64,000 nucleotides of DNA, taken from contig CAKJZJ010000003.1 of assembly GCA_918292005.1 (NCBI GenBank), forward strand, positions 4,161-68,160. Direction: 5' to 3'. Position numbers and translations under genes: made by a program. The notes below the pieces were generated by a model. The model had not been told where the DNA came from. It was given only the letters and a program-made list of their open reading frames with translations, and ran no database searches. Positions 13,917 to 62,096 of the stretch are shown here, one piece after another. This DNA comes from Clostridiales bacterium. Lineage in GTDB: Bacteria; Bacillota; Clostridia; Christensenellales; UBA1242. Within the stretch, counting starts at the first letter, position 1; each line of letters starts with the position of its first letter.

Positions 13917-14071
13917 ACAAATATTATAGTATACCTATATTTTTTTAGCAAATAATTTTTCGACTTTGTGGAGAGTTTATTATTGTTAAACATCAGATTT
14001 TAAGCATATTCTATTGTAAAATATTATTTTATTTGATAAAATAATAGAGATTAATTAAGGAGATTACAGCT

Positions 14072-44100: not shown

Positions 44101-44649
44101 ATGAAAGAAACTGCAGATATTATTGAATTAAAGAAACATCAATTCAAAATGTTGATATGTGTATCAATATTTCTTTTTCTTGCTTTTCTAGGTTTTACAC
44201 TTTATTGGGAGATTAGTTATAGCCACACCATGTCTAAATATGTAAAAACTACGGCAGAAGTAATAGATCATAGTGAGATGTCGGGTGAAATCCACGATGT
44301 TGTGAGATTCGTGGCTAATCGTGGTACGGATAGTGAAGCTACACATGAGAGAGTGCTTACGTATGTGTCCAATCACGAGATAGGTGCTATAGTCATTGTT
44401 TATTATGATGCATCCAATCCTACAATGGGGCAATTATTGATCTCGGATGAACTTGGTAGTCATCAAGTTATGCAGTATGTATTGCCGATCATATCTATAC
44501 TATTTGGTGGTATAGAATGTGCGTTTTTATGGCTATATTATAGTATAAATATTGCCAAATACAATACTACTCAAAAAGTAGAAAATCGACCTAAAGAAGA
44601 TGAAAATCTCAATATTGCTGATGCTGGTGAAAATGATGGAAAAGTCTAA
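44101..44649 (+). CDS. DUF3592-like membrane protein
   Basis: N-terminal TM, a beta-rich middle with IVIVYYDASNP, and a second TM. Confidence 0.4.
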   Translation: MKETADIIELKKHQFKMLICVSIFLFLAFLGFTLYWEISYSHTMSKYVKTTAEVIDHSEMSGEIHDVVRFVANRGTDSEATHERVLTYVSNHEIGAIVIVYYDASNPTMGQLLISDELGSHQVMQYVLPIISILFGGIECAFLWLYYSINIAKYNTTQKVENRPKEDENLNIADAGENDGKV

Positions 44650-45577
44650 AAAAAGAGTTCTGATGGAATGGACGATAATATTCGTATCGTTGGTAGTGTC
44701 GTTTGCTTTGGGATTAATATTCCATGATTATATATTGGGATCGCTTACGTTGTTTTTTGGTTTCATGAATTCATATTATATGGCTGTTGGCAAGTGGCAG
44801 AATTATATATTTGGCATATTATTTACCATTACATATACCATTATTTGTACTATTAATGGTCTATACGGGTGGCTAATATTTTCTATTGTATTCTATGTGC
44901 CAGTACAAATATATGGTCTCGTTAATTGGTCAAAAAATCAACAAAACAAAGAAGTTAAAATGAAGAGTTTTACATGGAAAAATTCTTTAATTATATGTAC
45001 TTTGGTGATTGTGGGAAGTGGAATTTTAGGATTTTTGCTTTCATTGATTCCAAGTCAAAGATTGGCTTTTTTGGATAGTACTAGTCAGATTATCAATATC
45101 TGTGGCGTTGTATTAGTTGCAATTAGATTTAGAGAATGTTGGTATGTGTGGTTAATTAATAATTTAATTGATCTATCAATTTGGATTGTCAATGTGATTC
45201 ACGCAACAGAAAATGCAGAGATGACTTTAATAACATCAATCATGTATCTAATTATGAATGTAATAGGTTTGATTAGTTGGATTGTGATTGAAAATAGGCA
45301 AAAAAAGATGGGGAATAATATGGATAAAATATGTCAAAGTTGTGGTATGCCTTTGCATAATGAAGATGATTATGGTACAGAAAAAAATGGTAATAAATCT
45401 AAAGATTATTGCAAATATTGCTATAAAGATGGGGATTTTATAGATAAAGTTGGTATGGAAGAGTACATAGATATGTGTTCTCAGTATGGCGCACAGGCAG
45501 GTATGTCCAATGAAGAAATGCGTATTTTCTGTATAAATTTGTTTCCGAAACTGAAAAGATGGAAAAAAGATAAGTAG
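44633..45577 (+). CDS. pnuC: PnuC-like nicotinamide riboside transporter fused to C-terminal zinc-ribbon domain
   Basis: Seven hydrophobic helices with PnuC-like W/N motifs (CWYVWLINNLIDLSIW). C-terminal CQSCGMPL...YCKYCYKDGDF zinc ribbon. Start is ambiguous among 44600, 44633 and 44636. Confidence 0.65.
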   Translation: MMEKSKKRVLMEWTIIFVSLVVSFALGLIFHDYILGSLTLFFGFMNSYYMAVGKWQNYIFGILFTITYTIICTINGLYGWLIFSIVFYVPVQIYGLVNWSKNQQNKEVKMKSFTWKNSLIICTLVIVGSGILGFLLSLIPSQRLAFLDSTSQIINICGVVLVAIRFRECWYVWLINNLIDLSIWIVNVIHATENAEMTLITSIMYLIMNVIGLISWIVIENRQKKMGNNMDKICQSCGMPLHNEDDYGTEKNGNKSKDYCKYCYKDGDFIDKVGMEEYIDMCSQYGAQAGMSNEEMRIFCINLFPKLKRWKKDK

Positions 45578-45591: not shown

Positions 45592-45885
45592 ATGGCATCT
45601 ACAAAAGAATTTAGAGATTTTGTATTGGACCAATTAAGTGGTTTGGATAATATTACTTGTAAATCTATGATGGGTGAGTTTTTATTGTATTATCAGGGTG
45701 TTCTTTTTGGTGGTATTTATGATGATAGGGTGCTTATCAAGATTACGAATTCAAACGAAAAGTATTCTCTATCATTGGCAATTCCTTACGAAAAAGGCAA
45801 GCCTATGTATATAGTTGAAGATATTGATGATGCAGATTATTTGGTTGCTCTTGTGAGAGATACATGTGTAGATTTAAAAAAATAA
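45592..45885 (+). CDS. TfoX N-terminal domain protein
   Basis: 97 aa with EFRDFVLDQL....KSMMGEFLLYYQGVLFGGIYDDRVLIK. Confidence 0.6.
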   Translation: MASTKEFRDFVLDQLSGLDNITCKSMMGEFLLYYQGVLFGGIYDDRVLIKITNSNEKYSLSLAIPYEKGKPMYIVEDIDDADYLVALVRDTCVDLKK

Positions 45886-48467: not shown

Positions 48468-48794
48468 GATTTCGCCTTTTATTTATTATTATTGAGTATT
48501 CTTTTAAATTCTATCAATTTTTTATATTTTTGACAATAAAAAAGACAATTGTTTCCTTTGTCCACAATAAATTTTTGTTCAAAAATTCATTTTTTTGAAA
48601 AATTTTTTTTATTAAATTTTAATTGCTCTAATTACTTATAGTAATTATGTTCGATAAAAATTCGACACGTTTGTACAAAAAAATAAAAAACTTTACAAAT
48701 TTTGACATAAAGTTTTGACTTTTGGGTGTTCGATATATTATACTAAGTGTGACGAAATAGCAAAGAGAATATTTTCGTGATAGGAGGTGTGAAA

Positions 48795-49346
48795 ATGAAA
48801 TACTGGACCAAGTCTATTTTGTCCATCTATAAGTATCTCGGTAGGTTGAGCAATGCTTTGGATAAAATTATTTTAGATGTGGGTAAGGGTAGCAATAGTG
48901 TATTGTTGATGCGTAGCCAGACTACTTATTATCAGGCAAATAAAATAATTGAGTTAATGGATAGGAAAAGAAAAACAATTAATTTGAAAGTAGCAGTTGA
49001 GGAGGTAATGAGCAAACTAAGTAAAGAAGATCGTAGGTTATTAACGCTTGTCTTTATAGATGGTGTGAAGTCGGATTTGGTAGCACAATTATTCGGTATT
49101 AGTCTTCGCACTTTTTTTAGGAAAAAAATAACCGCTTTGGAGAATTTTTCGACCAGACTGGACAAAATGGGCTTTACGGAAGAGTTTTTTGAAGAAGAGT
49201 ATAGCAAAGAACCTTGGATGGCACCTGTCTATGATGAGTGCGCTAGTAAAAATATCGAAGATGACTTTACTTTGGATCAATCTATCATCAATCGAGTGAT
49301 GAATAGAATGTCTAAAGTTAATGTCGCCTATAATACTTATATATAA
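48795..49346 (+). CDS. Sigma-70 region-4-type HTH protein (phage late-regulator-like, ArpU/RinA/DUF1492 style)
   Basis: ATG after AGGAGG. LSKEDRRLLTLVFIDGVKSDLVAQLFGISLRTFFRKKITALENF matches the region-4 HTH pattern. No region 2 was seen. Sits upstream of the terminase cluster. Confidence 0.5.
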   Translation: MKYWTKSILSIYKYLGRLSNALDKIILDVGKGSNSVLLMRSQTTYYQANKIIELMDRKRKTINLKVAVEEVMSKLSKEDRRLLTLVFIDGVKSDLVAQLFGISLRTFFRKKITALENFSTRLDKMGFTEEFFEEEYSKEPWMAPVYDECASKNIEDDFTLDQSIINRVMNRMSKVNVAYNTYI

Positions 49347-49354
49347 AGGGGGTG

Positions 49355-50107
49355 TTAGTATTTATCTATAATTTTTCTATTTTTGATTCTTTTGTGTTTA
49401 GTCACACGATGTCTAGGCCAATATAGTATTAATAGGATTAGTACACATGGCATCAACATTATTAGTATTATTATTACACTAGGTAGATGAGTCATTGGAT
49501 TTTCTATATGTGATATATTATCGCTTTTATACGTGATTTTTTCGGTATTTGCATAGGTGGGGGTTATGTGCGAGACGTACTTATTGTAGATGTAACCATA
49601 GTTGCCATTGTAGTTTATGTAATACCATGTAGTACCACCGAAGTCTATTGTTTCTTCTGCAAATATTCTACCTATGTATGATATATTGGTTTCGTTTTTA
49701 TAGATAGTACTTATTACATTACTTTTATTGGATTTTGTGGTGGGAGTAGAACGTAGGTTGCAGTCAGTACCTATTGTTATCAGTATTCCACTAGGGTATG
49801 GTGTGTTTGGGATTTCATTTATGATTTGCACATCATTCTTTTTTACATATCCAGATACACCATTGTATTTGACTTTGTACATATTGTTATTATCCGAAAT
49901 GATTTCTACAAAGTATGTCTTTTCTAATATGCAAATAACATTTTCTATAGTGTCGTTGGATTCGGCATACCTATATAGATTGCTTTCAGTCATAATTCTA
50001 GCATATGTGCTCTGAGCATATACACGTGTGTGTTCTATAGGTAATAATATTATCATGAGTAGATATATTATTGTTAAAAACTTTTTCATATCAATATAAT
50101 AATGCAT
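49355..50107 (-). CDS. SH3b-domain protein with signal peptide and C-terminal TM anchor
   Basis: Signal (..RVYA|Q) and two SH3b-like modules (YKVKYNGVSGYVKKNDV, WYYINYNGNYGYIYNKYV). The TM plus basic tail resembles the C-terminus of the 45921-48467 product. Start may be 50089. Confidence 0.5.
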   Translation of the reverse strand: MHYYIDMKKFLTIIYLLMIILLPIEHTRVYAQSTYARIMTESNLYRYAESNDTIENVICILEKTYFVEIISDNNNMYKVKYNGVSGYVKKNDVQIINEIPNTPYPSGILITIGTDCNLRSTPTTKSNKSNVISTIYKNETNISYIGRIFAEETIDFGGTTWYYINYNGNYGYIYNKYVSHITPTYANTEKITYKSDNISHIENPMTHLPSVIIILIMLMPCVLILLILYWPRHRVTKHKRIKNRKIIDKY

Positions 50108-50164
50108 TTGAATGTTATTGCATATTGTTTAAATGTAAAAAATTACGGGGAATATAGGTATTAA

Positions 50165-51613
50165 TTGCGATTTATGACTAATGAAGAGATAATTGAAAAA
50201 ATTAAAATAATAGAAAATGAAGAAAGCAGGAGAAAAGAAAAACAGCCTATTGATTTATATAATGCAGGTGAAATCAAACATGAAAAACAATTGATATTTC
50301 ATAAATGCAAAAAAAGGAATAGGTGGGTGTTTGGTGGCAACCGTAGTGGCAAGACAGAATGTGGTGCTGTAGAAGTGGTATGGTTAGCACGTGGTATTCA
50401 TCCATATAAAGATAATAAACCTAGAGATGGCTGGGTAGTATCCCTTAGTCAACAGGTACAGCGAGATGTTGCTCAGGCAAAAATATTGCACTATCTAAAA
50501 AGGGAATGGATAGCCGATGTGGTCATGATTTCTGGGAAAAAAGGTAGTGCCGAATATGGTATTATTGATACCATTTACGTAAAAAATGTTTTCGGCACTC
50601 TTAGCAAAATTGGTTTTAAAAGTTGTGATCAAGGTCGAGAAAAATTTCAAGGAACTACGTTAGACTATGTGTGGTTTGATGAAGAACCACCCGAAGATAT
50701 CTATACAGAGTGTCGAATGAGAGTACTGGATAGGTGTGGTGAAATATTTGGTACTATGACACCTTTGAAAGGATTGAGTTGGGTGTATGATACTATATAT
50801 CTCAATAATGCAAATGATGATGAAGTATGGTATGAGCAGATAGAATGGTCAGATAATCCATATTTGGATTCAAATGAGATAGCGAAATTATCATCAACCA
50901 TGAGTAGTGATGAATTGAATTCTAGGAAATATGGCTTGTTTACTAGTGGAATGGGTATGGTGTATAGTGAATTTGATATTAGATACAATGTCATAGAGCC
51001 TTTCGATGTACCGCATGAGTGGTACGATAAAATATCTATAGATCCAGGTTTGCACAATCCACTGAGTGCACATTTTTATGCTTGTGATTATGATGGCAAT
51101 ATATATGTTATTGCCGAACATTATGCTAGTGAGCATACCGTGGAATATCATGCACAGCAGATTAAATGTATTTGTGAAAAATTATCTTGGCCAAAGGTTA
51201 ATGGTAGGTACGAAGCAATAATAGATAGCGCCGCCAATCAGAGAACTCTCTCTAGTGAGAAAAGTGTAACAGAGTTATTTTTTGAGAATGGTATTGCTTG
51301 CAATCCATATGTGAATAAAGATATGTTTGCAGGTATCAATAGAGTCAAGTCATATTTTAAAAATTCTCTAGGCGAACGAAAACTATTTATCTTTAAAAAT
51401 TGTGTAAATATGATTAGGGAGATAAAGGGATATTTCTGGGGTAATAATGATTTGCCCAATAAAAAAGATGACCATAGCCTAGATGAATTGAGATACTATA
51501 TTATGAGCAGACCGGAAAATAAAGAAACAAAAATTCACAAAAAATCAGACATTCAGATTAAAAAGGAAAAATTAATAAAAAAGATAAGATTAAATCATTT
51601 AGGATACATGTAA
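50165..51613 (+). CDS. Phage terminase large subunit
   Basis: Walker A GGNRSGKTECG, Walker B LDYVWFDEEP, and a C-terminal RNaseH-like nuclease region (ISIDPG, IIDSAA, DDHSLDELRY). Start may be the ATG at 50174. Confidence 0.85.
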   Translation: MRFMTNEEIIEKIKIIENEESRRKEKQPIDLYNAGEIKHEKQLIFHKCKKRNRWVFGGNRSGKTECGAVEVVWLARGIHPYKDNKPRDGWVVSLSQQVQRDVAQAKILHYLKREWIADVVMISGKKGSAEYGIIDTIYVKNVFGTLSKIGFKSCDQGREKFQGTTLDYVWFDEEPPEDIYTECRMRVLDRCGEIFGTMTPLKGLSWVYDTIYLNNANDDEVWYEQIEWSDNPYLDSNEIAKLSSTMSSDELNSRKYGLFTSGMGMVYSEFDIRYNVIEPFDVPHEWYDKISIDPGLHNPLSAHFYACDYDGNIYVIAEHYASEHTVEYHAQQIKCICEKLSWPKVNGRYEAIIDSAANQRTLSSEKSVTELFFENGIACNPYVNKDMFAGINRVKSYFKNSLGERKLFIFKNCVNMIREIKGYFWGNNDLPNKKDDHSLDELRYYIMSRPENKETKIHKKSDIQIKKEKLIKKIRLNHLGYM

Positions 51614-51645
51614 GCAATCGTAGAGAATTCTATGGTTGCTTTTTT
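51614..51645 (+). terminator. Hairpin plus T6 directly after terminase large subunit gene
   Basis: GCAATCGTA-GAGAATTC-TATGGTTGC (9 bp, two G-U pairs) followed by TTTTTT. Confidence 0.4.
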
Positions 51646-51653
51646 GGAGCATT

Positions 51654-51935
51654 ATGAATACGAAAAATAAAAAAATAGAAAAAGCATTATTAGACAAGGC
51701 TGTGGGATATACCACAAAAGAGATTGTTGAAGAGTATGGCTATAATGGTGAAGATTTCGTTTTACAGAAAAGAAAAGTAAGCGAAAAAAGTTATCCACCA
51801 GATATGTCTGCTATACAGATGCTTTTAGATAAAGATAATACTTTCTGTGTGGAGAGTATGAGTGATGAAGAATTAAATAGTGAAAAACAAAGGCTATTGA
51901 AATTATTAAAGGAGAATGAAAAGAATGAATATTAG
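51654..51935 (+). CDS. Small terminase-like protein (short)
   Basis: LLDKAVGYTTKEIVEEYG....QKRKVSEKSYPPDMSAIQMLL resembles the conserved C-terminal segment of Firmicute phage small terminases (..GYEYEE...K..PPD..A..FWL). Only 93 aa, and placed after TerL. Confidence 0.35.
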   Translation: MNTKNKKIEKALLDKAVGYTTKEIVEEYGYNGEDFVLQKRKVSEKSYPPDMSAIQMLLDKDNTFCVESMSDEELNSEKQRLLKLLKENEKNEY

Positions 51936-52158
51936 CGAAGTGAATAGGTCGGTCAGATGTGATATGCCTAATTGCAAAAATTTTGCAAAAATCAAAGTGC
52001 AGAAACCGGGATTTATAATGGTGGCGGGAATGTATCTGTGTGACGAATGTGCAAAAGAATTGTATGAAATGTTGGGACACAGATTTGTGCCTAAAAGTCC
52101 AGATAATATGCTGAACAAAAGAATAAGAACCAAAAAGGAAATAAACAATGAAAACTAA
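51925..52158 (+). CDS. Small Cys-containing protein (possible zinc ribbon), unknown
   Basis: CDMPNC...CDEC cysteine pairs. AAGGAG RBS 10 nt upstream of the ATG at 51925. Confidence 0.4.
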   Translation: MNISEVNRSVRCDMPNCKNFAKIKVQKPGFIMVAGMYLCDECAKELYEMLGHRFVPKSPDNMLNKRIRTKKEINNEN

Positions 52159-54034
52159 AAGTGAAGAAAATAAAGAAAAAGAAATAGTGGAAAAAATATT
52201 AGAAGACTTTAAATTTAGACAACAAGAAAGAAAAAATTTTGAGAATACTTGGCAATTAAATATAAATTTTTTCCTAGGTAATCAATATTGTTATATTTCT
52301 CCCACTGGAGATATTACCGATACGGACAAACAGTATTTTTGGCAGGAAAGAGAAGTGTACAATCATATAGCAAATTTAGTAGAACTGAGACAGTCTAAAC
52401 TATCTAGGGTGAGACCAACTCTCACGGTTGTGCCTTTTTCTGATGATGAAAATGATGTTGCTTGTGCCAAGACTAGCAAAAAAATCCTGAAGGCCATTAG
52501 TTCAAAATTAAATATTGCAAAAATACTTACAATGGGTACTATGTGGAGTGAAATATGTGGTACTGTTTTTTACAAGGTAGATTGGAATAATGAAATAGGT
52601 AATGTAGTGGGTATAGACGAGATGGGGCGTGAAATTAAAGAAGGAGATGTGGAAATTAGTGTTGTGAGTCCTTTTGAGATTTACCCAGATAGCAATACTT
52701 ACAATTCTTTAGAAGATTGTGTATCTATTATATATGCGAGATCTTTTCATAGAGATCAAGTGAAAAATATATGGGGTATTGATGTTGAAGGAAAAGATAT
52801 TGATGTCTTTACTCTAGATTCTTTGGGAACAAGTGGTGGGCTAGGTTACTCTACTCTATCTAATTCTATGTCCAAAAAACTGAAAAAAGATCAAGTACTA
52901 GTACTAGAAAAATATGAAAAACCAACAATAGAATATCCATTGGGTAGACTAACTATTGTAGTTGGAGACAAACTGGTTTATATGGGAGATTTACCATATA
53001 TCAATAAAAACGAAGGTGTTAGGGGATTTCCTTTCATTAGACAGACTAGTATACCTACTCCTAATTGTATTTGGGGTACTAGTATAGTAGAAAGATGTAT
53101 ACCGATCCAGAGATCGTACAATGCTATCAAAAATAGAAAGCATGAATTTTTAAATAGGCTTACTATGGGTATTCTTTCGGTCGAAGATGGTTCTCTAGAT
53201 ATAGAAAATCTAGAAGAAGAAGGACTATCTCCAGGTAAGGTGCTTATTCATAGACAGGGGGCACAACCACCACAATTATTGTCGACTGGTAATGTTCCTA
53301 TCGATTTTCAATATGAAGAAAATTCTCTTTTAAATGAATTTAGCAATATTTCTGGTGTGAGTGATTTGCTTAAAAATAAAAATTTGAATTATGGTAATAT
53401 TTCTGGTATTGCCTTGCAATTACTCATAGAACAAGACGATACTCGCCTGATTTCATCTGCAGAAGAAATAAAAAATAGTGCAAAAGAGATAGCAAAGCAG
53501 ATTTTAAGGCTGTATAAACAATATGCTCCTAATGCACACACATCGAGAATTGTAGGCGACAATGGCGAAGTGGAAATGTTCTACTGGAATGGTTGTGATA
53601 TTAATAGTGAAGATGTCGTATTTGAGACAGATAGTGAATTGAATGAAACCATAGCACAGAAACGTAGTATGATATTTGAAATATTAAAAACTGGCTTACT
53701 TCATGACGAAAATGGCAAATTGAGTAATACTGTCAGGTCTAAACTTTTGGAATTGCTAGGACTGGGAATCTGGGATGGTGGTCAGGATATTAATAGTTTA
53801 CAAAAAACTCAAGCCGAAAAAGAAAATATTGATTTGCTAATAGATGGCAAAATGCGAGAACCATTAGAGATAGATGATCATGATGTACATATTGATAAAC
53901 ATATTGAGTTTATGTTAGGCAATCAATTTCAAAAAGCCAATGTTGATGGCAAACTTACTGAGATTGTTCTGGAGCATATTAGAGAACATAAAAAATATAA
54001 AAACGTAACAAAAATAATTGAAGAAGGAAGGTAA
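52148..54034 (+). CDS. Phage portal protein
   Basis: 628 aa ORF between the terminase genes and the scaffold/capsid genes. Call rests on position and size. No catalytic motif is expected. Confidence 0.6.
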   Translation: MKTKSEENKEKEIVEKILEDFKFRQQERKNFENTWQLNINFFLGNQYCYISPTGDITDTDKQYFWQEREVYNHIANLVELRQSKLSRVRPTLTVVPFSDDENDVACAKTSKKILKAISSKLNIAKILTMGTMWSEICGTVFYKVDWNNEIGNVVGIDEMGREIKEGDVEISVVSPFEIYPDSNTYNSLEDCVSIIYARSFHRDQVKNIWGIDVEGKDIDVFTLDSLGTSGGLGYSTLSNSMSKKLKKDQVLVLEKYEKPTIEYPLGRLTIVVGDKLVYMGDLPYINKNEGVRGFPFIRQTSIPTPNCIWGTSIVERCIPIQRSYNAIKNRKHEFLNRLTMGILSVEDGSLDIENLEEEGLSPGKVLIHRQGAQPPQLLSTGNVPIDFQYEENSLLNEFSNISGVSDLLKNKNLNYGNISGIALQLLIEQDDTRLISSAEEIKNSAKEIAKQILRLYKQYAPNAHTSRIVGDNGEVEMFYWNGCDINSEDVVFETDSELNETIAQKRSMIFEILKTGLLHDENGKLSNTVRSKLLELLGLGIWDGGQDINSLQKTQAEKENIDLLIDGKMREPLEIDDHDVHIDKHIEFMLGNQFQKANVDGKLTEIVLEHIREHKKYKNVTKIIEEGR

Positions 54035-54039
54035 AAAAC

Positions 54040-54678
54040 ATGGAAGATAATGTTTTTGGAGAACAACCACTAGATGAAGTAGTTCAAGCCGTAGCGACGG
54101 GAGATAGTGTGGGAACAGAAACAAATAGTGGCTCTCCACTGGGCAAATTTAAAAGTACAGAAGCACTTTTTGATGCTTATAACGAGTTGTAGAGTGAGTT
54201 TACTCGCAAGTGTCAAAAATTGAGTGATGTAGAAAAAAAATTGCAAGAAAGTGTGTCTAAAGATACTAGTAAATTAGATACACAAAGTAAAGATTTTGCC
54301 TGGGATAATAATATTAGTGAGTTTCTGCAATCTCACAAATATGCCAAAAATTTTGTAGAAGATATTACTAATGAAATTATTAATAATTCGGATCTAAAGA
54401 ATGATAGTATGGGACTCGAAAAAGCATACTATAAAGTTTTAGAGAATAAGTATGCATCTGCAGAAGATTTGGCTAAAAATGGTGAATTCTTGGAAAAATA
54501 CATTTATTCAAATAAGGATATAAAAGACAAAATAATAACTGAATATATTTCTAGTTTAAAATCAAAGCAAAATCCCATCAAGGTCAGTTCGATCACTTCT
54601 CCGGGAGTAGCAACCAAGACGGAATTCACCAGCCTTGATGATGCTAGGGGTTATCTAGAGAATATGTTTAGATTTTAG
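54040..54678 (+). pseudogene. Phage scaffolding protein gene interrupted by a single in-frame TAG (54190-54192)
   Basis: ATG at 54040 after GAAGGAAGG. Translation reads ...GKFKSTEALFDAYNEL*SEFTRKCQKLSDVEKKLQE..., which continues in the same frame into the 54220-54678 ORF. That ORF has no credible RBS or start of its own. The product is acidic and coiled-coil-like, and lies between portal and capsid. Confidence 0.55.
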
Positions 54679-54687
54679 GGAGAAAAT

Positions 54688-55860
54688 ATGATTACATTAC
54701 AAACAGCAGATAATGCCCTAAAGACAGTTTATCTAGGGGTTATCGGCAATCAATTAAATATTGGAGCAAATCCATTACTTACAAAAATTAAACATACTAC
54801 AAATAATATCTATGGTAATGAAATAAGAAAGGCTACATCTTACGGTTTTTCTGGTGGCGTGTCCGCAGGTTCAGAAGATGGTTCTTTGCCAACTGCAGAT
54901 AGCAAAAAATATGTTACATTTACTACCACTCTTAAAAATCTCTATGGTACTATAGAAATTTCTGATAAGGCTATTAGATGTTCACAGAATAGTGCTGGTG
55001 CATTTGTAAATCTACTTAATGATGAAATGGAAAGTTTGATTAAATCTAGTGCTTTCAATCTAGGCAGAATGCTATATGGCGATGGTAGAAGTGTCCTTGC
55101 TACTATTGCAGCCGACGTGGCAAGTACAGATGTAGAATTAACACTTGATAGTGTTAGAAATCTTATGGAAAATATGACAATCAATATATGTGATAATGCA
55201 TGTACATTTTATTTGCCTGTTGATCCATTTGTTATTAGATATATTGATAGGGTAAATAAAACTGTTACACTTAGCAGAGCACCAGGATTAAATATTAAAA
55301 ACTATCATTTGACTACAATTAATGGTCTGAATAAAGAAATAACAGGTTTAGGCAAAATATTTGAACCTAATGGCACTCTATATGGTGTAGATAAATCAAC
55401 CAATCCTTGGATGAACCCATATTCTAAGGGTAGTGTTGGCACATTGTCTGAGACTGTAATGCAGGAAGCAATTGATACTGTAGAAGAAAATACAGGTGCA
55501 GAAATTGACTATATTGCATGTTCTTCTGCTGTTAGAAGAGCATATCAAGATGGTCTCAATACATATAGAAGAAATGTAGATATTATGAATCTACAGGGTG
55601 GATTCAAAGCCATATCTTATAATGGTATTCCACTAGTAAATGATAGATTTGTAGAAGATGATACTATGTATTTATTGTCTACCAAGAACTTTGAGATGTG
55701 TCAATTATGTGATTGGGAATGGTTAGAGAATAATGATGGTAGAATCATTAAACAAAAAGAAGGTAAGCCTGTATATACAGCCACTCTTGTAAAATATGCA
55801 GAATTACTATGTGATAGACCAAATGCTCAGGCAAAATTGTCTGGTATTACTATATCTTAA
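54688..55860 (+). CDS. Phage major capsid protein
   Basis: 390 aa, with a strong RBS (AGGGAGA), placed after the scaffold gene and before a hairpin terminator. The LYGTIEISDKAIR....AFVNLLNDEME...RMLYGDG pattern is typical of HK97-fold capsid families, judged from memory and not searched. Confidence 0.6.
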   Translation: MITLQTADNALKTVYLGVIGNQLNIGANPLLTKIKHTTNNIYGNEIRKATSYGFSGGVSAGSEDGSLPTADSKKYVTFTTTLKNLYGTIEISDKAIRCSQNSAGAFVNLLNDEMESLIKSSAFNLGRMLYGDGRSVLATIAADVASTDVELTLDSVRNLMENMTINICDNACTFYLPVDPFVIRYIDRVNKTVTLSRAPGLNIKNYHLTTINGLNKEITGLGKIFEPNGTLYGVDKSTNPWMNPYSKGSVGTLSETVMQEAIDTVEENTGAEIDYIACSSAVRRAYQDGLNTYRRNVDIMNLQGGFKAISYNGIPLVNDRFVEDDTMYLLSTKNFEMCQLCDWEWLENNDGRIIKQKEGKPVYTATLVKYAELLCDRPNAQAKLSGITIS

Positions 55861-55867
55861 TTTTAAT

Positions 55868-55898
55868 GCTAGGGCACATTTGCCCTAGCAAATTTTTT
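55868..55898 (+). terminator. Hairpin after capsid gene
   Basis: GCTAGGGC-ACATTT-GCCCTAGC perfect 8-bp GC-rich stem, followed by AAATTTTTT. Confidence 0.5.
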
Positions 55899-55915
55899 AA
55901 TTAAAGTGAAAAAAT

Positions 55916-56284
55916 ATGAAAATAAAAATAGATGAAGATACTTTTGATATCGTAAAAAGAATAAAAGAAATAGATGAAAATTATTATGTTGTTTATGATA
56001 CGAAAAAAGAAAGATTTGAAATGCATTATGCTGGACTATGCCAGACATTTTGCTTTGTAATTGGCGATGAATTGGATAATAGGGCTATAGATATGATTCA
56101 CTATACCAGTAGTAGATATTTAGATGAAATATTGGATTATATAGACGACAATAATGAAAAATTGGAATCAAAATCTATGGAAACTATAAAGTCCAATGCA
56201 GACTATGTTTTAAGGGAAATTTATAAATTTAGTGCCAATTCTAGCAAAGAAATGAATGGTGCGTTTCAGTCTACATGGAGATAA
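55916..56284 (+). CDS. Hypothetical phage-cluster protein (122 aa)
   Basis: ORF in the structural-gene block. No motif recognised. Confidence 0.5.
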   Translation: MKIKIDEDTFDIVKRIKEIDENYYVVYDTKKERFEMHYAGLCQTFCFVIGDELDNRAIDMIHYTSSRYLDEILDYIDDNNEKLESKSMETIKSNADYVLREIYKFSANSSKEMNGAFQSTWR

Positions 56285-56286
56285 TT

Positions 56287-56853
56287 ATGGAAGTAAAAAA
56301 TATTATATTGAATACTGCTAAACTTTTAAATATGTCAGATTTGATTACATATCTAGACGATATGCAACATGTTGTACCTAGTGCCGATACTCTAAAAGAT
56401 ATAGAAGATATGATTCTGGCTGTTAATATTACTAATAGCAATATTGCTTGCAATTATATAGAATTGACATCGACTAAAAGAGTACATTCGGATAGTGGCG
56501 TCGTTGTATATAATTATTTATCCAATAAAAATATTATTGAAATAAAAAGTGTAAAGGACTTGAATGGTAATAAAGTGAAATATACTGTGCGACCAGATAA
56601 TTTACTTATACCTAAAGGTTCTCATGATATTGAATTTAGTTATTATCCTGCTAGTGTAGGATTGGCCGATAATATTAATTATTATTTGAAGATTAATGAG
56701 ATTATATTTGCACTTGGTGTCGCTGGTGAGTATTTGTTTATTAAAGGAGATATAGATGACGCATATATGTGGGATAAAAGATTTAAACAAATGATGTTGG
56801 GAGCATTGCGACCAAAAAGACAAATTGATATGCCTGTTGATAGGTGGTGCTAA
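56287..56853 (+). CDS. Hypothetical phage-cluster protein (possible head completion/adaptor by position)
   Basis: ATG at 56287 after GGAG. Position only. Confidence 0.45.
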   Translation: MEVKNIILNTAKLLNMSDLITYLDDMQHVVPSADTLKDIEDMILAVNITNSNIACNYIELTSTKRVHSDSGVVVYNYLSNKNIIEIKSVKDLNGNKVKYTVRPDNLLIPKGSHDIEFSYYPASVGLADNINYYLKINEIIFALGVAGEYLFIKGDIDDAYMWDKRFKQMMLGALRPKRQIDMPVDRWC

Positions 56854-58355
56854 TGTTTAATCCCAATACATTGAAATTAAAAAATATCTCTTATCTAAAA
56901 AGAAAATATGCGTCGTTTAAAAATGGTATTAATGTTGATTACGATGAAAATCTTTTGCCGATAAAATATAGTACCAATACATATAATTACGATTATACCA
57001 ATGGAGCATTGCGTGATGGTATTGGTATCAATGCACCAATTATCCATTACTCATATGGTAGATATGATTATACCAAGCATATCAATACTCAGAATAAAGA
57101 TGTTCATGGTAGTTATTTATTCAATTTTTGGTCGCACACTGATCATAGGCATTATTCATTATTGTTGCTTTATTGTGGAGATGGCAAAGTATATTATAAT
57201 GTGCTCCATATGTCGTCAGAAACGATAACGGCAATCCCCAATGTGACTTTTACGAGTATGCCTAAATTTTGCAGTTTCAAATTGAATGGAGTAGATACAC
57301 TCATTATGACTAGCGAAACAGATGGCATGTATACATGGACGCCATATCATCAAGCAGTACATGTGGAGAATGCGCCACAAATTAATAATATGTGCATACA
57401 CAATGAAAGATTATTTGTTACAACTCTGGGTGAGCGTCGTTCGGTATGGTTTAGTGATGATCTGGATCCTACCAATTTTAATCTTACTCTGCAAGAAGGT
57501 GGATTTATAGAAATGGCTGATGATTTTGGTAAATCCAATAAGGTGGTGACTCTAGATGGGTATCTGTATGTTATTAGAGACTTTAATATAGCCAGAATAA
57601 TTGCCTATGCTGATCAAAAGAAATTTACATTACAGCAAATATATGTTGGTAATAGTAGGATATATGAAAACACTGTAGCAGTATGTGGAGATAAAATTTA
57701 TTATCTAGCGAGTGATGGACTATATGTCTTTAATGGATCGTCTGCTAAAAAAGTAAAATTATCTATCAACAAAATGTTTGATGAGACCAATAATTATTTT
57801 GCAGTTGCAGGCTACATTAATGGTCATTATTATTTGGCATGCAATATACATTTTAATGATGAAAAAATAGTGGGCTGTGAGAATAGTCGATTGGCTAAAA
57901 ATAATGCACTAATCAAAATTAATGTTCAGACGGGTGAATTAAATATACTCAGGGGCTATGATGTAAGAAATATTTGTGCAATTAATGATTTGTATGATCC
58001 TTGGTTAATGGTATCTTACTGGGATTATCAAACAGACAATTATGAATTTTGTAGACTAGATATGTCTGGTACTGTTCTAGGGGTGGCTACTAGTAAAGAA
58101 TGGCAGTCTCCTTATTCAGACTTTGGATATCCAGATAGAGAAAAACTAGTAAAAGAAATAACACTATATAGCAAGAGTGATTGTAAGATAGAAGTGTGCT
58201 GTGATGGTCAGAGTAGAATATTTGAGATACAGGGTAAAGATAATTACCAAACCATAAGACCAAAAATGAAAGGTAAAAGAATTGCATTAAATTTTAAGTC
58301 CAATGTTGAAAATACATATATATCAAATCCACAGATTGTGGTGGGGTTGTTGTGA
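56853..58355 (+). CDS. Hypothetical phage-cluster protein, ~500 aa, beta-rich (propeller-like)
   Basis: TAATG coupling to the previous gene. Repeated strand motifs (LYVIRDFNIARII, IYYLASDGLYVFNG, HYYLACN). Confidence 0.5.
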   Translation: MFNPNTLKLKNISYLKRKYASFKNGINVDYDENLLPIKYSTNTYNYDYTNGALRDGIGINAPIIHYSYGRYDYTKHINTQNKDVHGSYLFNFWSHTDHRHYSLLLLYCGDGKVYYNVLHMSSETITAIPNVTFTSMPKFCSFKLNGVDTLIMTSETDGMYTWTPYHQAVHVENAPQINNMCIHNERLFVTTLGERRSVWFSDDLDPTNFNLTLQEGGFIEMADDFGKSNKVVTLDGYLYVIRDFNIARIIAYADQKKFTLQQIYVGNSRIYENTVAVCGDKIYYLASDGLYVFNGSSAKKVKLSINKMFDETNNYFAVAGYINGHYYLACNIHFNDEKIVGCENSRLAKNNALIKINVQTGELNILRGYDVRNICAINDLYDPWLMVSYWDYQTDNYEFCRLDMSGTVLGVATSKEWQSPYSDFGYPDREKLVKEITLYSKSDCKIEVCCDGQSRIFEIQGKDNYQTIRPKMKGKRIALNFKSNVENTYISNPQIVVGLL

Positions 58356-59335
58356 TGAATAGATTTGATGAGATGCTGTGTAGGTATAATGTCCTTACCG
58401 AAGATGCTAAAAAAACAGACAAAATATGTTATAGAATTTTCAAGGGAAATAGAAGGTATACGCTAGAGAGTGATGAAAAAAATACAAATGCCATGATAAT
58501 GATTCAGGTAAGTAGTGCTAGTAGTCTACAGATATATCTGGGTGGAATAAAAATATATGATTATGCAGGTATAAAGAATGCATATGTCCCAGTTATAGTA
58601 AACCAAAGAAAAGAATTACGAATAATTGGAGATTGCGAATATCTGGTAGTAGTAGCGTTAGGAGCAAGTTTTGTAGAAAAAGAAAGAAACTTTTATCTAG
58701 ATAGAATCAATACATACATTGAAGATTGTGGTGAGTTCAGAATTCAGGAATATGCCAGTCTTGCAGATTATGTTTGCTATAATTTCAATACAGTCAAAAT
58801 TCTAGAAGATGTAATCGAAGCCAAGGTAATAAATTATAATGGTAATGAATATTGTGGTGTAATATTCAAGGATAATGATGGGGTGTGTTTTTCATCTTCT
58901 ATAGATAACTATGTAGGGAAAATTATTATTACAAATGATTGTGATGATATTGTCGTACTGGGTAGTACTAGTCATGATAAACTATATTTTGTATACCTAA
59001 TATTTGGAGAAATATATAGAGCAACATATGATATATCCAGTGGTGTTTTGAGTGGTGCCGTGCTTATTGATATTGATGCTAAAATTGATAATGGTTCTGT
59101 GGTTGGGTTTATAAAAACACAAATTAATTCTGACGAGAATGTGTTTGTGTGTATTAATATATCAAACAAATACATGGTAGTTTATGACATAAATAATAAT
59201 ATTATTGTCAATAATTATAAAATATATGACAAAAACGTAAATACAATCATAAATAATAATGAAATATTAATCTTTCAAAAATTATATAAAAAAATGCAAA
59301 TTATTAAAATTATTTATGTATACAATAATAACTAA
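58355..59335 (+). CDS. Hypothetical phage-cluster protein (~326 aa) with N/I-rich C-terminus
   Basis: TGATG coupling to the previous gene. No motif recognised. Confidence 0.5.
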   Translation: MNRFDEMLCRYNVLTEDAKKTDKICYRIFKGNRRYTLESDEKNTNAMIMIQVSSASSLQIYLGGIKIYDYAGIKNAYVPVIVNQRKELRIIGDCEYLVVVALGASFVEKERNFYLDRINTYIEDCGEFRIQEYASLADYVCYNFNTVKILEDVIEAKVINYNGNEYCGVIFKDNDGVCFSSSIDNYVGKIIITNDCDDIVVLGSTSHDKLYFVYLIFGEIYRATYDISSGVLSGAVLIDIDAKIDNGSVVGFIKTQINSDENVFVCINISNKYMVVYDINNNIIVNNYKIYDKNVNTIINNNEILIFQKLYKKMQIIKIIYVYNNN

Positions 59336-59441
59336 TATTTGACAAGTCAAAGTAATTATGTTGTTATAGACAATGTAGATTGTTGCTGTATTGTGGCTGG
59401 TAAATATGTTTTATATAATTGTATAAATACTACGGTGAGTG

Positions 59442-60452
59442 ATGATTTATTCTGAGATTGTTAGAGATGTTGTTAGGTTAAATTTGCATAATAATTTTTA
59501 TAAAGGTGGTAGTACTTTGGAATATAGAATTGGTAATGATGAAACAAATAAAATTAGAGATATGTATAATTCTGATTTGAATAAAAATAACCTTGATGAT
59601 TTGATAGGTAAGATAAAAGTAATCGATGATACATATAGATTATCTGATTATCCAGAATACATTGATCCTGGTTTTGAACGTATGCCTTCTGTTAGTGTTG
59701 ATGCTGATACTATTAGAGAAAATGCTATAGAATCTTTAGGTGAATATAAAAACAAATCTATCGATAGTATTAATTCTGACTATGATTCTCGTAGTCAAAA
59801 GTTACTGGATGCTAAAGATGATTTGGCTTTTGATTTGGAGTCTCAGAAGTCCAATGTTTCTTCTTATTATGATTCTGCTAGAACTAGATCTAGTAATGAT
59901 GCTTTGGATAGGGGGCTAGCCAGGAGTAGTATTATTATCAATGTTTTGGATGCTTTTGATAATAATGAAATTGCTGATTTGCGTGCCCTTGATGATGAAT
60001 ATACCAAGTCTTTAAATACTATTGACTTTCAATTAAATTCTCTCAAATTGCAGAGAGAAAAGGCTTTGTCCGATTTTGATATTTCTTATGCTGTAAAATT
60101 GGGAGATAAAATATCTTCTTTGACTGCAGATATGGAGAAAAAGCGTTCTGAAGTTATTAAATATAATAATGAGATTGCTGAAAAAGAAAAGAAATATTTG
60201 GACAACTATAATAAGTTGGTCTTGGATATTAAGAAGTCAAATATATCTAATAGTAATAAAATGGTAGAGTTGGTAGGTAAATATGGTGATAAGGCAATTA
60301 ATAGGTATCGCAAAAATCAAATATTTGACCTTTTAGATGAATATTTTGCTAATATGAGCAAAGATACTGCATTGGATGTTTTGAATACCAATGATACTTT
60401 AAAGGATGCTCTAGGCTCTGATTTTGATGAATATATAGGTAGGTATCAATAA
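59442..60452 (+). CDS. Hypothetical phage-cluster protein, D/S/K-rich coiled-coil-like
   Basis: Follows a 100-nt gap containing TATAAT (59413-59418). Stop and start overlap with the holin gene. Confidence 0.5.
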   Translation: MIYSEIVRDVVRLNLHNNFYKGGSTLEYRIGNDETNKIRDMYNSDLNKNNLDDLIGKIKVIDDTYRLSDYPEYIDPGFERMPSVSVDADTIRENAIESLGEYKNKSIDSINSDYDSRSQKLLDAKDDLAFDLESQKSNVSSYYDSARTRSSNDALDRGLARSSIIINVLDAFDNNEIADLRALDDEYTKSLNTIDFQLNSLKLQREKALSDFDISYAVKLGDKISSLTADMEKKRSEVIKYNNEIAEKEKKYLDNYNKLVLDIKKSNISNSNKMVELVGKYGDKAINRYRKNQIFDLLDEYFANMSKDTALDVLNTNDTLKDALGSDFDEYIGRYQ

Positions 60453-60697
60453 TGTGGGAGCAAATAGTTAATTTAGCCGTTAGTAATGGTTTATTTGCTG
60501 TTATGTTTCTGGGGCTTCTTATTTATCTATTACGTGATAGCAAAAATAGAGAGAATAAATATCAAAATACTATAGAAAGGCTAGGGCATGCTTTAGAAAT
60601 CGTGCAGGATGTTAAGGATGATGTTGAAGAGATTAAATCTATTATTGATGATAGATATGTAAAGAAAGGGACTCGTGATGTGGAAAAAAAGAACTAA
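60452..60697 (+). CDS. BhlA/UviB-family holin-like protein
   Basis: The N-terminal helix and following motif NGLFAVMFLGLLIYLLRDSKNRENKYQNTIERL match the BhlA/UviB pattern (G.FAVLF..LL.Y.....K.RE.K). Confidence 0.7.
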   Translation: MWEQIVNLAVSNGLFAVMFLGLLIYLLRDSKNRENKYQNTIERLGHALEIVQDVKDDVEEIKSIIDDRYVKKGTRDVEKKN

Positions 60698-61037
60698 AAC
60701 AACTTCTTTTTGGATTGGGCTTTCATCAATACTTGTTTTAATTGTGGATTATGTTAGTAGTGAATTTGGATTTTCTATATGTTCTGATTTAGTGCCTAAA
60801 ATTATTTTGGGTTTATGCTCGTTTCTTGTGTTGGTGGGTTTTGTCAATAAAAAAGATGTTGATGGTGAGCCTTCACAAAAAACTGAAATTTTAGATGAAA
60901 TCAAATCTTTGAATAATTATACAAAAAATAAATCAAATACCAAAAACGAATTATTAAAAAAATCGAACGATAAAAATTTGAATAATTATACAAATATTTC
61001 GCATAATTATTCGGATTCTGATGATGAGACTAAGTAA
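60678..61037 (+). CDS. Small two-TM membrane protein (possible second holin component)
   Basis: Two hydrophobic helices followed by a charged N/K-rich tail. Overlaps the end of the BhlA-like gene. Confidence 0.4.
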   Translation: MWKKRTKTTSFWIGLSSILVLIVDYVSSEFGFSICSDLVPKIILGLCSFLVLVGFVNKKDVDGEPSQKTEILDEIKSLNNYTKNKSNTKNELLKKSNDKNLNNYTNISHNYSDSDDETK

Positions 61038-61055
61038 TTTTATTTGTTTATTAGT

Positions 61056-61091
61056 GTGGCTCCTGTATTTTTATGGGAGTCACTTTTTTTT
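61056..61091 (+). terminator. Rho-independent terminator closing the phage-like cluster
   Basis: GTGGCTCCT...GGGAGTCAC hairpin followed by T8. Confidence 0.65.
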
Positions 61092-61145: not shown

Positions 61146-62096
61146 ATGATATTCAAAAATTCGCTTAAAATACTTTTTTCTAATTTTAATATTGTGTGGA
61201 AGACACTTCTCTATTTATTTGTTGTCTTTCTTTTATCTGCTGTTGGTGTGTATTTGTCTCTTAAGCCTATATACGATCTTTTAGTATTGTCTGGGCTTAT
61301 TGATTCAATTAGCGAGATTTACACTAGTTTTATCACTTCGCTAAATTTGGCACAGTTTTTTATGTCGTCTAGCGATTTGATTGCTTCCATTTGGATGGTT
61401 ATTGTTGGTAATATTTCATCCATCTGGTTTAGTATTGTCTGTTTTGTATTTGTGGTTTTTGTATTTAAGGTATTGGCTTCCAATTTGATTATTATGGTTA
61501 ATTGTGAGTGTTTGCATTATTATATGGGTAGTATGAATAGGGCTTCATACTTTCACGAGTTTGGTGCTACTTTGGGTAAAAATATTAGGATGCAACTTTG
61601 CTATTATCTAGTATCACTTCCTATCAAATTGCTAATTGTTGCTATATGTTACTTTGAATGTATGTTAATAGGTGGTGGGCTTTTACAGGCCATATTTACA
61701 GTTTTCTTCTTGGTGGTTTCTTTTGTAATATTGGTTGCTTTGAAATATACTTTATTTGCCACTTGGATGCCTACTGTGGTGGTAATGAATTATGGTGTAT
61801 TTAAATCACTAGGTAAAGCGCTTAAATTATCTTTTAGGAAATTTGGTCGTATTTTTGCCAATGCGCTAGGGGTGGTTTCTGTTATTTATTTCGTAAATGT
61901 GTTTTTTGGTCTGTTTACATTCTTTGCTGGATTGCTGATTACTATTCCTGCATCATATTTATTCTATAGCGTGTTTGGAATGGTTGTTGTTTATGATTGT
62001 CAGGGTATGAGATATTATGTAGATGTGTATAATGTTGTATCTCCAGCCAAAAAGGAAAAGTCCGATAAATTGAAACAAATGAAATATATTGTGTAA
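61146..62096 (+). CDS. Polytopic membrane protein, function unknown
   Basis: 316 aa with about 7 hydrophobic helices. Has its own TTGATT/TATAAT promoter-like elements and its own terminator. Confidence 0.5.
   Translation: MIFKNSLKILFSNFNIVWKTLLYLFVVFLLSAVGVYLSLKPIYDLLVLSGLIDSISEIYTSFITSLNLAQFFMSSSDLIASIWMVIVGNISSIWFSIVCFVFVVFVFKVLASNLIIMVNCECLHYYMGSMNRASYFHEFGATLGKNIRMQLCYYLVSLPIKLLIVAICYFECMLIGGGLLQAIFTVFFLVVSFVILVALKYTLFATWMPTVVVMNYGVFKSLGKALKLSFRKFGRIFANALGVVSVIYFVNVFFGLFTFFAGLLITIPASYLFYSVFGMVVVYDCQGMRYYVDVYNVVSPAKKEKSDKLKQMKYIV

Follow-up and report, generated by a model that had tools for sequence, protein, structure and literature searches.

The 64-kb stretch of contig CAKJZJ010000003.1 analyzed here (referred to as the window) is chromosomal DNA of a gut-dwelling, uncultured member of the Clostridia and harbors a cluster of phage head, short-tail, and lysis genes at positions 48795 to 61091 (approximately 12.3 kb). 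These genes form a single co-oriented block on the plus strand, running from a putative activator gene to two holin genes and closed by a terminator. A co-oriented block of approximately 12 kb with head, packaging, and holin genes, lying between housekeeping flanks and ending in a terminator, had been described in an earlier note made from the sequence alone, and this description was borne out by comparison of the cluster open reading frames (ORFs) with the Pfam, PHROG, and NCBIfam collections and by a hairpin scan.

The block opens with a gene (48795 to 49346) whose product is a sigma-70 region 4-like helix-turn-helix regulator of the RinA/ArpU/DUF1492 type (Sigma70_r4_2, E = 2e-5; DUF1492, E = 1e-3; PHROG 36, labeled "transcriptional regulator," E = 9e-11), the match to RinA itself being weak. 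Its ORF begins at a GTG codon at 48777, the likelier start being the ATG at 48795, which is preceded by GGAGG. The sigma-70 region 4, DUF1492, and RinA families are those of late-gene activators in Gram-positive phages, and the regulator is, by its sequence, a candidate activator of the late operon. The large terminase subunit, TerL, is encoded at 50165 to 51613 (Terminase_6N, E = 9e-13; Terminase_6C; PHROG 2, E = 7e-26) and shares a median identity of 63% with its orthologs. It is followed by the gene for a 99-amino-acid (aa) TerS-like protein (51636 to 51935), which is weakly matched by the central part only of PHROG 309 and 23444 (E = 1e-4), in which family searches recognized no DNA-binding domain, and whose gene is kept between those of TerL and the portal in 99 of 120 loci. 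The next gene (51916 to 52158) specifies an 80-aa zinc-ribbon-like protein with a CxxC...CxxC pattern, apparent from its sequence and from sub-threshold Pfam hints only; it was detected in 58 of 120 loci, with a ratio of nonsynonymous to synonymous substitution rates (dN/dS) of 0.1. The largest ORF of the cluster (52148 to 54034) encodes a 628-aa portal protein of the P22/SU10 type (P22_portal, E = 8e-14; PHROG 156, E = 4e-29). Between the portal and capsid genes lies an ORF with an in-frame TAG codon (54040 to 54678), to which a scaffold function is ascribed from this position. The major capsid protein (54688 to 55860) belongs to the podovirus/SU10 family of the HK97 fold class, as is evident from its matches to NCBIfam NF033394 (capsid_maj_Podo; 247 bits against a cut-off of 80), SU10_MCP, and PHROG 14242 (E = 6e-47).

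Downstream of the capsid gene, a conserved 122-aa protein (55916 to 56284) has no match in Pfam, PHROG, or NCBIfam; its gene was found by tblastn in 40 of 64 loci with dN/dS values of 0.06 to 0.2, and its position suggests a role in head completion. At the other end of the block are a BhlA/UviB-type holin (60452 to 60697; Holin_BhlA, E = 6e-15; PHROG 2429; one transmembrane segment, residues 8 to 26) and a second holin-like small membrane protein (60675 to 61037; PHROG 962, E = 4e-6; PHROG 297, E = 4e-5; Phage_holin_1, E = 5.5e-3; a predicted transmembrane segment), each of which is present in 37 of 53 loci.

The earlier note had left five proteins of this block as being of unknown function, two of which can now be placed, namely, a 503-aa protein and the 337-aa product of the gene directly preceding the holins. 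The 503-aa protein (56844 to 58355) was modeled with AlphaFold2 from a 58-sequence alignment at a predicted local distance difference test score (pLDDT) of 90.6 and a predicted template modeling score (pTM) of 0.89. When this model was compared with the PDB using Foldseek, the best match was the tail of phage Pa223 (9nwi_Y; E = 1.7e-22; template modeling score of 0.74), and the first 27 matches were all portal-tail or tail chains of podoviruses or crAss-like phages; further matches included VP1, GP4, Pan3, the PhiM1 nozzle, P22 gp10 (8eap_D), SU10, and T7 gp12. Its predicted fold, which is based on a beta-propeller and matches solved nozzle chains from end to end, identifies this protein as a tail nozzle of the podovirus T7 gp12/P22 gp10 class, and because of this, a particle produced by the cluster would be short-tailed rather than tail-less. 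A weak match to PHROG 5107 ("amidase") had raised the possibility that this protein is a lysin, which was ruled out by the nozzle fold. The nozzle is also observed to diverge far faster than its neighbors, being 32% identical between loci L001 and L007, where the capsid proteins are 71% identical; its synonymous divergence (dS) in the pair L007/L008 is 1.14, compared with 0.3 to 0.6 for neighboring genes, and its divergence is uncorrelated with that of RNase J (rho of 0.05). The raised dS and the lack of correlation with RNase J suggest exchange, recombination, or diversifying pressure on the tail parts.

The 192-aa protein encoded directly upstream of the nozzle gene (56275 to 56853) is probably the portal-nozzle adaptor, a role assigned by analogy from its size and its place, which correspond to the arrangement of gp11/gp12 in T7 and of gp32/gp33 in Microbacterium phage Shocker. 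It is comparable in size to the T7 gp11 and P22 gp4 adaptors and intact in 83 of 85 orthologs. Comparison of its profile with the Shocker "tail tube protein" by hhalign yielded no significant match (E = 0.014; probability of 3%), while no match to PDB sequences was obtained with this profile, and hhalign of the nozzle against Shocker gp33 was not significant.

The gene that follows the nozzle gene (58352 to 59335) occupies a hypervariable slot. Its 327-aa product was modeled (AlphaFold2, pLDDT of 86.5) as an N-terminal beta-sandwich followed by a beta-propeller, and the matches of this model in the PDB and BFVD were generic beta-propellers only. It is a near-orphan, with 2 matches among 5.8 billion proteins and 38 among 1.84 billion representatives, and it is 50% identical to its closest relative, in locus L085, where the capsid protein is 92% identical. 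Other lineages hold unrelated proteins of 300 to 470 aa in this slot, and no Pfam match was obtained for nine different proteins encoded there. The variability of the slot makes the 327-aa protein a candidate receptor-binding protein. Loci L016, L018, and L030, which do not possess the slot gene, contain a fast-evolving ORF of approximately 830 codons between the TerL and TerS-like genes (e.g., L030 positions 3351 to 5849), the product of which displays adhesin-like matches (GLUG, Peptidase_M26_N-like, and InlB B-repeat) and may represent an alternative receptor-binding protein. The 337-aa protein encoded next in the window (59439 to 60452) belongs to DUF7934 (PF25588, E = 8e-40) and is alpha-helical and coiled-coil-like; its gene lies directly upstream of the holin genes in 34 of 53 loci. 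Comparison of the DUF7934 profile with the PDB and PHROGs returned coiled-coil noise only, and literature searches retrieved no paper describing either DUF7934 or this cluster.

Outside the cluster, a Pfam scan of the remaining 50 kb of the window, covering every ORF of 110 aa or longer, identified only housekeeping functions, including PolA, CtsR, ClpC, HPF, DnaB, AlaRS, Pgm, Obg, TsaE/B, a Mur ligase, Ddl, MurG, type II topoisomerase subunits, a deacetylase, SSB, PnuC, TfoX_N, and RNase J. Scans against Pfam, PHROG, and NCBIfam detected no integrase, recombinase, repressor, phage replication gene, tape measure, sheath, or lysin domain in the 64 kb, in agreement with the earlier note. No att-like direct repeats flank the cluster, a feature for which the note had advised a search at the borders, and neither an integrase nor an att site, which it had allowed might lie just beyond, was found in the 64 kb. 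The integrase or recombinase, repressor, replication module, and att sites of a complete temperate prophage are thus missing, and in the window, as in the flanks of three relatives, the gene content is that of a gene transfer agent (GTA) or viriform, i.e., structural and packaging genes without modules for integration, excision, lysogeny control, or replication.

A compact module composed mostly of head and packaging genes, many relatives of which are listed as viral contigs in IMG/VR, could also be read as a helper-dependent satellite resembling a capsid-forming phage-inducible chromosomal island (cf-PICI), or as the structural arm of a prophage with its remaining modules elsewhere. The cf-PICIs are likewise compact islands with their own terminase, portal, and capsid genes; however, they additionally possess an integrase, regulatory and replication genes (a replication initiator or primase), and att sites, and they borrow the tails of a helper phage, whereas the present cluster possesses none of these and encodes its own nozzle. 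Neither the 64 kb nor the flanks scanned in relatives yielded an AlpA, a primase or other replication gene, or an interference gene; the cluster borders directly on housekeeping genes at both ends, and the IMG/VR fragments bear the same host flanks. For these reasons a satellite or prophage arm, the former being one of three readings offered in the earlier note, is considered highly improbable.

Relatives of the cluster are numerous. The capsid protein has 6,477 homologs at an E value of ≤1e-5 in a metagenome protein set, many of them 58 to 70% identical and encoded on contigs of 100 to 700 kb, and capsid relatives are present in at least 598 genomes (one genome per GTDB species). The best 80 of these are almost all metagenome-assembled genomes labeled Clostridia, Christensenella sp., Christensenellaceae, or Ca. 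Borkfalkia, obtained from human, ruminant, rabbit, and chicken guts. By comparison, the closest capsid proteins in a phage genome collection are only 23 to 27.5% identical, the best being that of phage Shocker. In locus L001, the capsid protein of which is 63% identical, the gene order is identical to that of the window, including the stretch from the large membrane protein to RNase J: SSB, a large membrane protein (minus strand), the regulator, an SH3 protein (minus strand), TerL, two small genes, the portal, an intact scaffold gene, and the capsid are followed by genes for proteins of 125, 187, 501, 362, and 248 aa, the BhlA holin, the second small protein, a 316-aa protein, RNase J, a methyltransferase, and a U32 peptidase. 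The core gene order is kept across the fetched loci, and the flanks are syntenic inside each subgroup. RNase J is encoded downstream in 16 of the 26 sufficiently long loci at a capsid identity of ≥55% and in 2 of 21 at 50 to 55%. Other neighborhoods also consist of housekeeping genes. The cluster of L039 is bordered by DnaJ, RsmE, IMPase, and an ABC transporter at one end and by ComEC at the other, and that of L028 by FeoB and RluA at one end and by YqfD, PhoH, YbeY, and Era at the other, while a methylase/McrBC/LexA-like island comes after the cluster in L036. Scans of the flanks of these three relatives revealed no integrase, three long ORFs having lain outside the scan. Homologs residing inside complete prophages, which the earlier note had named as grounds for regarding the cluster as a simple remnant, were not seen; the loci examined lie among housekeeping genes, often in the same position between SSB and RNase J.

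Two further observations were made on these loci. The IMG/VR "viral contigs" encoding this capsid protein (L087 to L148) are mostly short chromosomal fragments that bear host flanks (SSB and RNase J). Furthermore, a reduced variant occurs in L039, L043, L045, L049 to L051, L053, and others (e.g., L039 positions 6765 to 14308), which consists only of the TerS-like, portal, scaffold, and capsid genes, genes for proteins of 107 to 121 aa and 183 to 184 aa, and the nozzle and holin genes. Its portal and capsid genes are still under purifying selection (dN/dS of 0.05 to 0.07), and it may represent a split locus with TerL encoded elsewhere.

Intact-length orthologs predominate for TerL (71 of 75), the portal (124 of 127), the capsid (135 of 139), and the nozzle (89 of 89). 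In L007/L008, the least saturated informative pair, dN/dS was 0.02 for TerL, 0.03 for the portal, 0.04 for the TerS-like protein, 0.065 for the capsid, about 0.10 for the 122-aa and 192-aa proteins, 0.13 for the nozzle, and 0.05 for the holins, compared to 0.02 for host RNase J and 0.08 for the 316-aa membrane protein encoded beyond the holins. Values for TerL ranged from 0.02 to 0.06, and those obtained for the window against L085 ranged from 0.05 (capsid) to 0.54 (second holin). Most cluster genes of L007/L008 have a dS of 0.3 to 0.6, the nozzle being the exception noted above, versus 0.36 to 0.61 for flanking host genes, an equality which indicates that the cluster and its neighbors diverged together; cluster and flanks also diverge in parallel in nine further pairs. 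The base composition of the cluster resembles that of its host (GC content of 31.6% versus 32.0%; GC content at third codon positions of 24.2% versus 24.1%), and relative synonymous codon usage correlates between cluster and host with an r of 0.973, versus 0.980 for a host-host control. Across 17 loci, distances correlate with those of RNase J at a rho of 0.63 for the portal, 0.56 for TerL, and 0.58 for the 192-aa protein. The cluster is therefore conserved, intact, under purifying selection, and host-like in composition, as would be expected of long-term retention in a GTA or viriform, with the correlation with RNase J, which is moderate for some genes and weak or absent for others, as a caveat.

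These data bear directly on whether the cluster is a decaying prophage remnant that has no present function, a reading to which the nonsense codon in the scaffold gene of the window copy, the absence of lysogeny, replication, and lysin genes, and the short TerL ORFs of a few relatives would all be suited. Against it stand the preservation of the same gene set in intact form at well over 100 loci of different species, dN/dS values far below 1 for every gene, a fully ameliorated composition, and a position common to species with saturated synonymous sites, the window copy being at most a recent loss-of-function allele. A remnant is thus deemed improbable. The argument against random decay advanced in the earlier note is upheld by the intact orthologs and purifying selection, and the relaxed selection that it had associated with a remnant was not observed.

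The interruption of the scaffold-position gene sets the window copy apart from most of its relatives. The in-frame TAG (54190 to 54192) sits on a Gln codon that is conserved in the orthologs, each of which is one intact ORF of 201 to 237 aa reading "...AYNELQSEFTRK..." where the window reads "...AYNEL*SEFTRK...". One ORF fills the gap between portal and capsid genes in 108 of 124 related loci, from which the window departs as an outlier. Recoding of TAG or the action of a suppressor tRNA was ruled out, as TAG is an ordinary stop codon in this genome, ending 9 of 52 long ORFs, and the window is devoid of tRNA genes. To judge from the sequence, the codon is the result of a single CAG-to-TAG change, arising from a recent nonsense mutation or from an erroneous base call; contig L150, the capsid protein of which is 87% identical, does not cover the corresponding position. 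The change affects the window copy, and the family as a whole is not inactive.

It is, therefore, proposed as the probable, though by no means certain, interpretation that the cluster represents a particle module of the GTA (viriform) type, derived from a podovirus, domesticated, and fixed in the chromosome. This proposal is based on a gene content limited to late genes, on the conservation, intactness, and constraint of these genes in hundreds of species, on their housekeeping surroundings, and on an age and composition matching those of the host. Two of the readings put forward in the earlier note, i.e., a domesticated GTA-like module and a minimal short-tailed structural module, merge into this one. 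According to the proposed model, the activator (48795 to 49346) would, under host signals, switch on one late operon extending from TerL to the holins. The portal, scaffold, and podovirus-family capsid proteins would build small procapsids, and a hairpin located after the capsid gene would lower the expression of the downstream tail genes. TerL and the 99-aa TerS-like protein would then fill the heads with host chromosomal DNA, this being the expected substrate because the element can neither excise nor replicate; packaging would be random, with a head capacity below 12 kb. The short tail would be completed by the 192-aa adaptor, the 503-aa nozzle, the 327-aa propeller protein, and the DUF7934 protein, following which the two holins would release particles capable of transfer to recipients. 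As no endolysin is encoded in the cluster, lysis would presumably require host autolysins or a lysin encoded elsewhere, as in the second operon of the GTA of Faecalibacterium prausnitzii (FpGTA) discussed below.

The control signals of the block were assessed by an explicit scan for hairpins followed by T-runs, which was also used to count terminators across loci. The operon is closed by an intrinsic terminator (61056 to 61091, plus strand) formed by a hairpin with a 12-bp stem and a T8 tract (61056 to 61083), and a terminator-like site follows the second holin gene in 24 of 32 loci. A further terminator-like hairpin with a T-run (55867 to 55890, plus strand) lies directly 3′ of the capsid gene; such a structure occupies this place in 71 of 138 loci, versus 3 to 4% after the portal or nozzle gene and 15% of intragenic controls, and it is likely an attenuator that sets the ratio of head to tail expression. 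Among loci L005 to L148, this hairpin is conserved in position and not in sequence. The promoter-like sequence TTGACT-18-TATACT upstream of the activator (48715 to 48744) is not above chance expectation. The start of the divergent SH3 gene (50107) is separated from that of TerL by only 57 nucleotides, and the sequence that most resembles a promoter of the late operon, TTGTTA-18-TATAAT (50071 to 50100), likewise not above chance, overlaps this gene at its 5′ end, i.e., the SH3 gene. Transcriptional interference between the SH3 gene and TerL is possible. Rfam searches produced no match in the window, including any riboswitch or other element upstream of the activator or TerL, and a k-mer search for a shared operator in the AT-rich upstream regions returned nothing informative.

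Several membrane protein genes accompany the block. The SH3 gene (49355 to 50107, minus strand) encodes a 250-aa membrane-anchored protein with two bacterial SH3 domains (SH3_3, E = 2e-7) and transmembrane segments at both ends. It lies directly upstream of TerL, and divergent from it, in 29 of 32 loci, including those with differing outer flanks, and the activator (plus strand) sits upstream of it in 26 of 32; the gene belongs to the conserved unit. Upstream of the activator, an 848-aa protein with an N-terminal signal or transmembrane segment and a C-terminal transmembrane anchor is encoded at 45921 to 48467 (minus strand), as determined by transmembrane prediction and the locus survey. The window protein has no match in Pfam, PHROG, or NCBIfam, and an NHL match is on record for its L001 ortholog. 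A minus-strand gene for a membrane-anchored protein of 600 to 900 aa precedes the activator in approximately 25 of 32 loci, and the 848-aa gene is probably an accessory gene of the element. Neither the SH3 gene nor the 848-aa gene had been listed with the block in the earlier note. The 848-aa and 250-aa proteins form one phmmer family with a common C-terminal SH3b-like module, transmembrane anchor, and basic tail, and in most loci, including those with other outer flanks, their genes accompany the cluster in the reverse orientation; they might conceivably serve as receptors, in immunity, or in the control of lysis. On the other side, a gene with its own promoter-like site and terminator (61146 to 62096, plus strand) encodes a polytopic 316-aa membrane protein with at least five transmembrane segments and no family match. 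It comes after the holin or DUF7934 genes in 21 of 53 loci, in some of which no adjacent RNase J gene was detected, and is possibly associated with the cluster.

Regarding the genes farther out, a TfoX_N gene (97 aa; 45592 to 45885) and a gene for a PnuC-zinc-ribbon fusion (44600 to 45577) are close left-hand neighbors of the element, an arrangement peculiar to this genome, and ComEC is encoded approximately 4 kb downstream of the cluster in L039, L045, and L053. These neighbors may point to a link between competence and GTA-like elements, or they may be a coincidence. The SSB gene (43339 to 44013), separated from the 848-aa gene by three genes on the left, specifies an SSB domain at residues 106 to 201 after an N-terminal extension of approximately 100 aa and is syntenic with the cluster in approximately 14 loci.

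The closest known counterpart is FpGTA, a podovirus-like GTA of F. prausnitzii (Nat Commun 2026; PMC12946183). Its 10.5-kb operon encodes a TerS without a DNA-binding domain, TerL, a portal, a scaffold-position protein, a capsid protein, hypothetical proteins, a nozzle recognized through PDB entry 8eap, and an abundant virion protein annotated as "TolA," while a second, 5.5-kb operon situated 125 kb away encodes a fiber, a receptor-binding protein, a holin, and an endolysin; the particles measure approximately 40 nm and carry 8.4 to 8.9 kb of random DNA (PMC12946183). Both systems are chromosomal operons of approximately 10 to 12 kb in gut Clostridia, podovirus-like, and without integrase or replication genes, and they share the layout of TerS/TerL, portal, scaffold, capsid, small ORFs, nozzle, and helical protein, as judged against the published description and protein table (PMC12946183). 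The two nozzles match the same PDB entry, 8eap, and FpGTA is near-ubiquitous in its genus, just as the present cluster is widespread in its host clade. In contrast, the FpGTA capsid is named as a member of the N4-gp56 family (RCH50849.1), whereas that encoded here is of the capsid_maj_Podo/SU10_MCP type and had no match to the NCBIfam N4-gp56 model at E ≤ 0.01; on these family names and model matches, the two capsid proteins represent different sequence families. FpGTA also possesses a Prp-annotated gene before its capsid gene and holds its holin and endolysin genes in the second operon, whereas the present operon includes the holin genes, shows no endolysin, and has an activator and an SH3 membrane protein attached to it.

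GTA-like packaging has furthermore been reported in the Christensenellaceae genera HGM11616 (4.1 kb) and QANA01 (6.3 kb), the responsible genes not being identified (PMC12946183); both fragment sizes are smaller than the cluster of approximately 12.3 kb. We tentatively advance, as a possibility somewhat short of probable, that the present cluster is the genetic basis of this packaging, that it stems from an ancient podovirus domestication independent of FpGTA and inherited across the whole order (at least 598 species), and that its hypervariable receptor-binding slot restricts exchange to close kin.

Other known systems resemble the cluster in part. The RcGTA-type viriforms of the Alphaproteobacteria are likewise vertically inherited head-tail-lysis clusters under purifying selection, without mobility genes, with a dedicated sigma-like or HTH activator adjacent to the cluster or in control of it and a TerS lacking sequence specificity; the activator of RcGTA is GafA. 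RcGTA differs in being siphovirus-like, with a tape measure, tube, and baseplate, in its capsid family, in its known control by CtrA and quorum sensing, and in its experimentally shown activity. PBSX of Bacillus subtilis is also a defective phage-like element of the Bacillota with a holin-based lysis cassette and packages host DNA, but it is myovirus-like and approximately 28 kb in size, with a sheath, tube, repressor, and amidase, and kills rather than transfers; its tail and lysin genes are not found here. The statement in the earlier note that low-GC Bacillota offer no well-described GTA-like elements is no longer fully current, PBSX having long been known and FpGTA having appeared in 2026 (PMC12946183). 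Among phages, podoviruses of the SU10/P22/Pa223 type match the capsid, portal, and nozzle folds or families of the cluster, and Shocker (capsid protein 27.5% identical) displays the same order of terminase, two small genes, portal, scaffold-position gene, and capsid, followed further on by a 214-aa "tail tube protein" and a 514-aa protein. However, these phages possess complete genomes of 40 to 80 kb with replication genes, lysis enzymes, and fibers, and their identity to the cluster is limited to 23 to 27.5%.

A number of observations weigh against the proposal of a domesticated GTA-type module. The chromosomal context of the cluster differs between lineages, making occasional transfer or relocation possible, and the reduced variant possesses neither TerL nor the activator, SH3, slot, or DUF7934 genes at its locus. 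The correlation of distances with those of RNase J is no more than moderate for the portal and TerL, weak for the capsid (rho of 0.18), and absent for the nozzle (0.05). A few IMG/VR fragments contain short TerL ORFs, the TerS assignment is weak (PHROG E = 1e-4), and the window copy may have been recently inactivated by the scaffold TAG, unless this is a sequencing error. FpGTA is backed by transmission electron microscopy, proteomics, and DNA sizes, whereas the present cluster is known from its genes.

Other such points lead to an alternative in which the particle is domesticated but serves a function other than transfer, namely, that of a PBSX-like killer or defective particle or of a programmed-lysis device, with packaging being incidental. 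The BhlA/UviB holin family is tied to bacteriocin release and is filed by PHROGs under bacteriocin production or immunity, no lysin or specific receptor-binding fold was found for the 327-aa model in the PDB or BFVD, no endolysin domain was recognized in the 64-kb window, and conserved membrane proteins (SH3, 848 aa, and 316 aa) accompany the cluster. A PBSX-like role has also been left open for FpGTA by its authors (PMC12946183). On the other hand, TerL and the portal are among the most constrained genes (dN/dS of 0.02 to 0.03), from which it appears that DNA packaging is selected, and no cluster gene matches a tape measure, sheath, tube, or baseplate family, as a tailocin or PBSX-like contractile particle would require. 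A short nozzle by itself is not known to kill cells. A non-transfer function is accordingly regarded as unlikely, though deserving of consideration, and the domesticated GTA-type module is retained as the favored interpretation.

Few GTAs are known outside the Alphaproteobacteria. The first podovirus-like GTA of a gut commensal was reported in 2026 (PMC12946183), so that the type itself was already known from FpGTA; what is new here is the identity of the nozzle, the breadth of the family, its constraint, and its host-like divergence. The cluster provides a concrete gene set as a candidate for the unexplained packaging signal of the Christensenellaceae (PMC12946183), as well as a functional context for conserved but uncharacterized genes, including those encoding DUF7934, the 122-aa protein, the variable-slot proteins, and the SH3 and large membrane proteins. 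Catalogs of the IMG/VR type list such chromosomal fragments as viral, which inflates counts of gut "phages" and can mislead host assignment. If the interpretation proposed here is true, this cluster would represent a second, sequence-distinct, and order-wide family, which would suggest capsid-mediated exchange of chromosomal DNA to be a common and selected trait of Gram-positive gut anaerobes.

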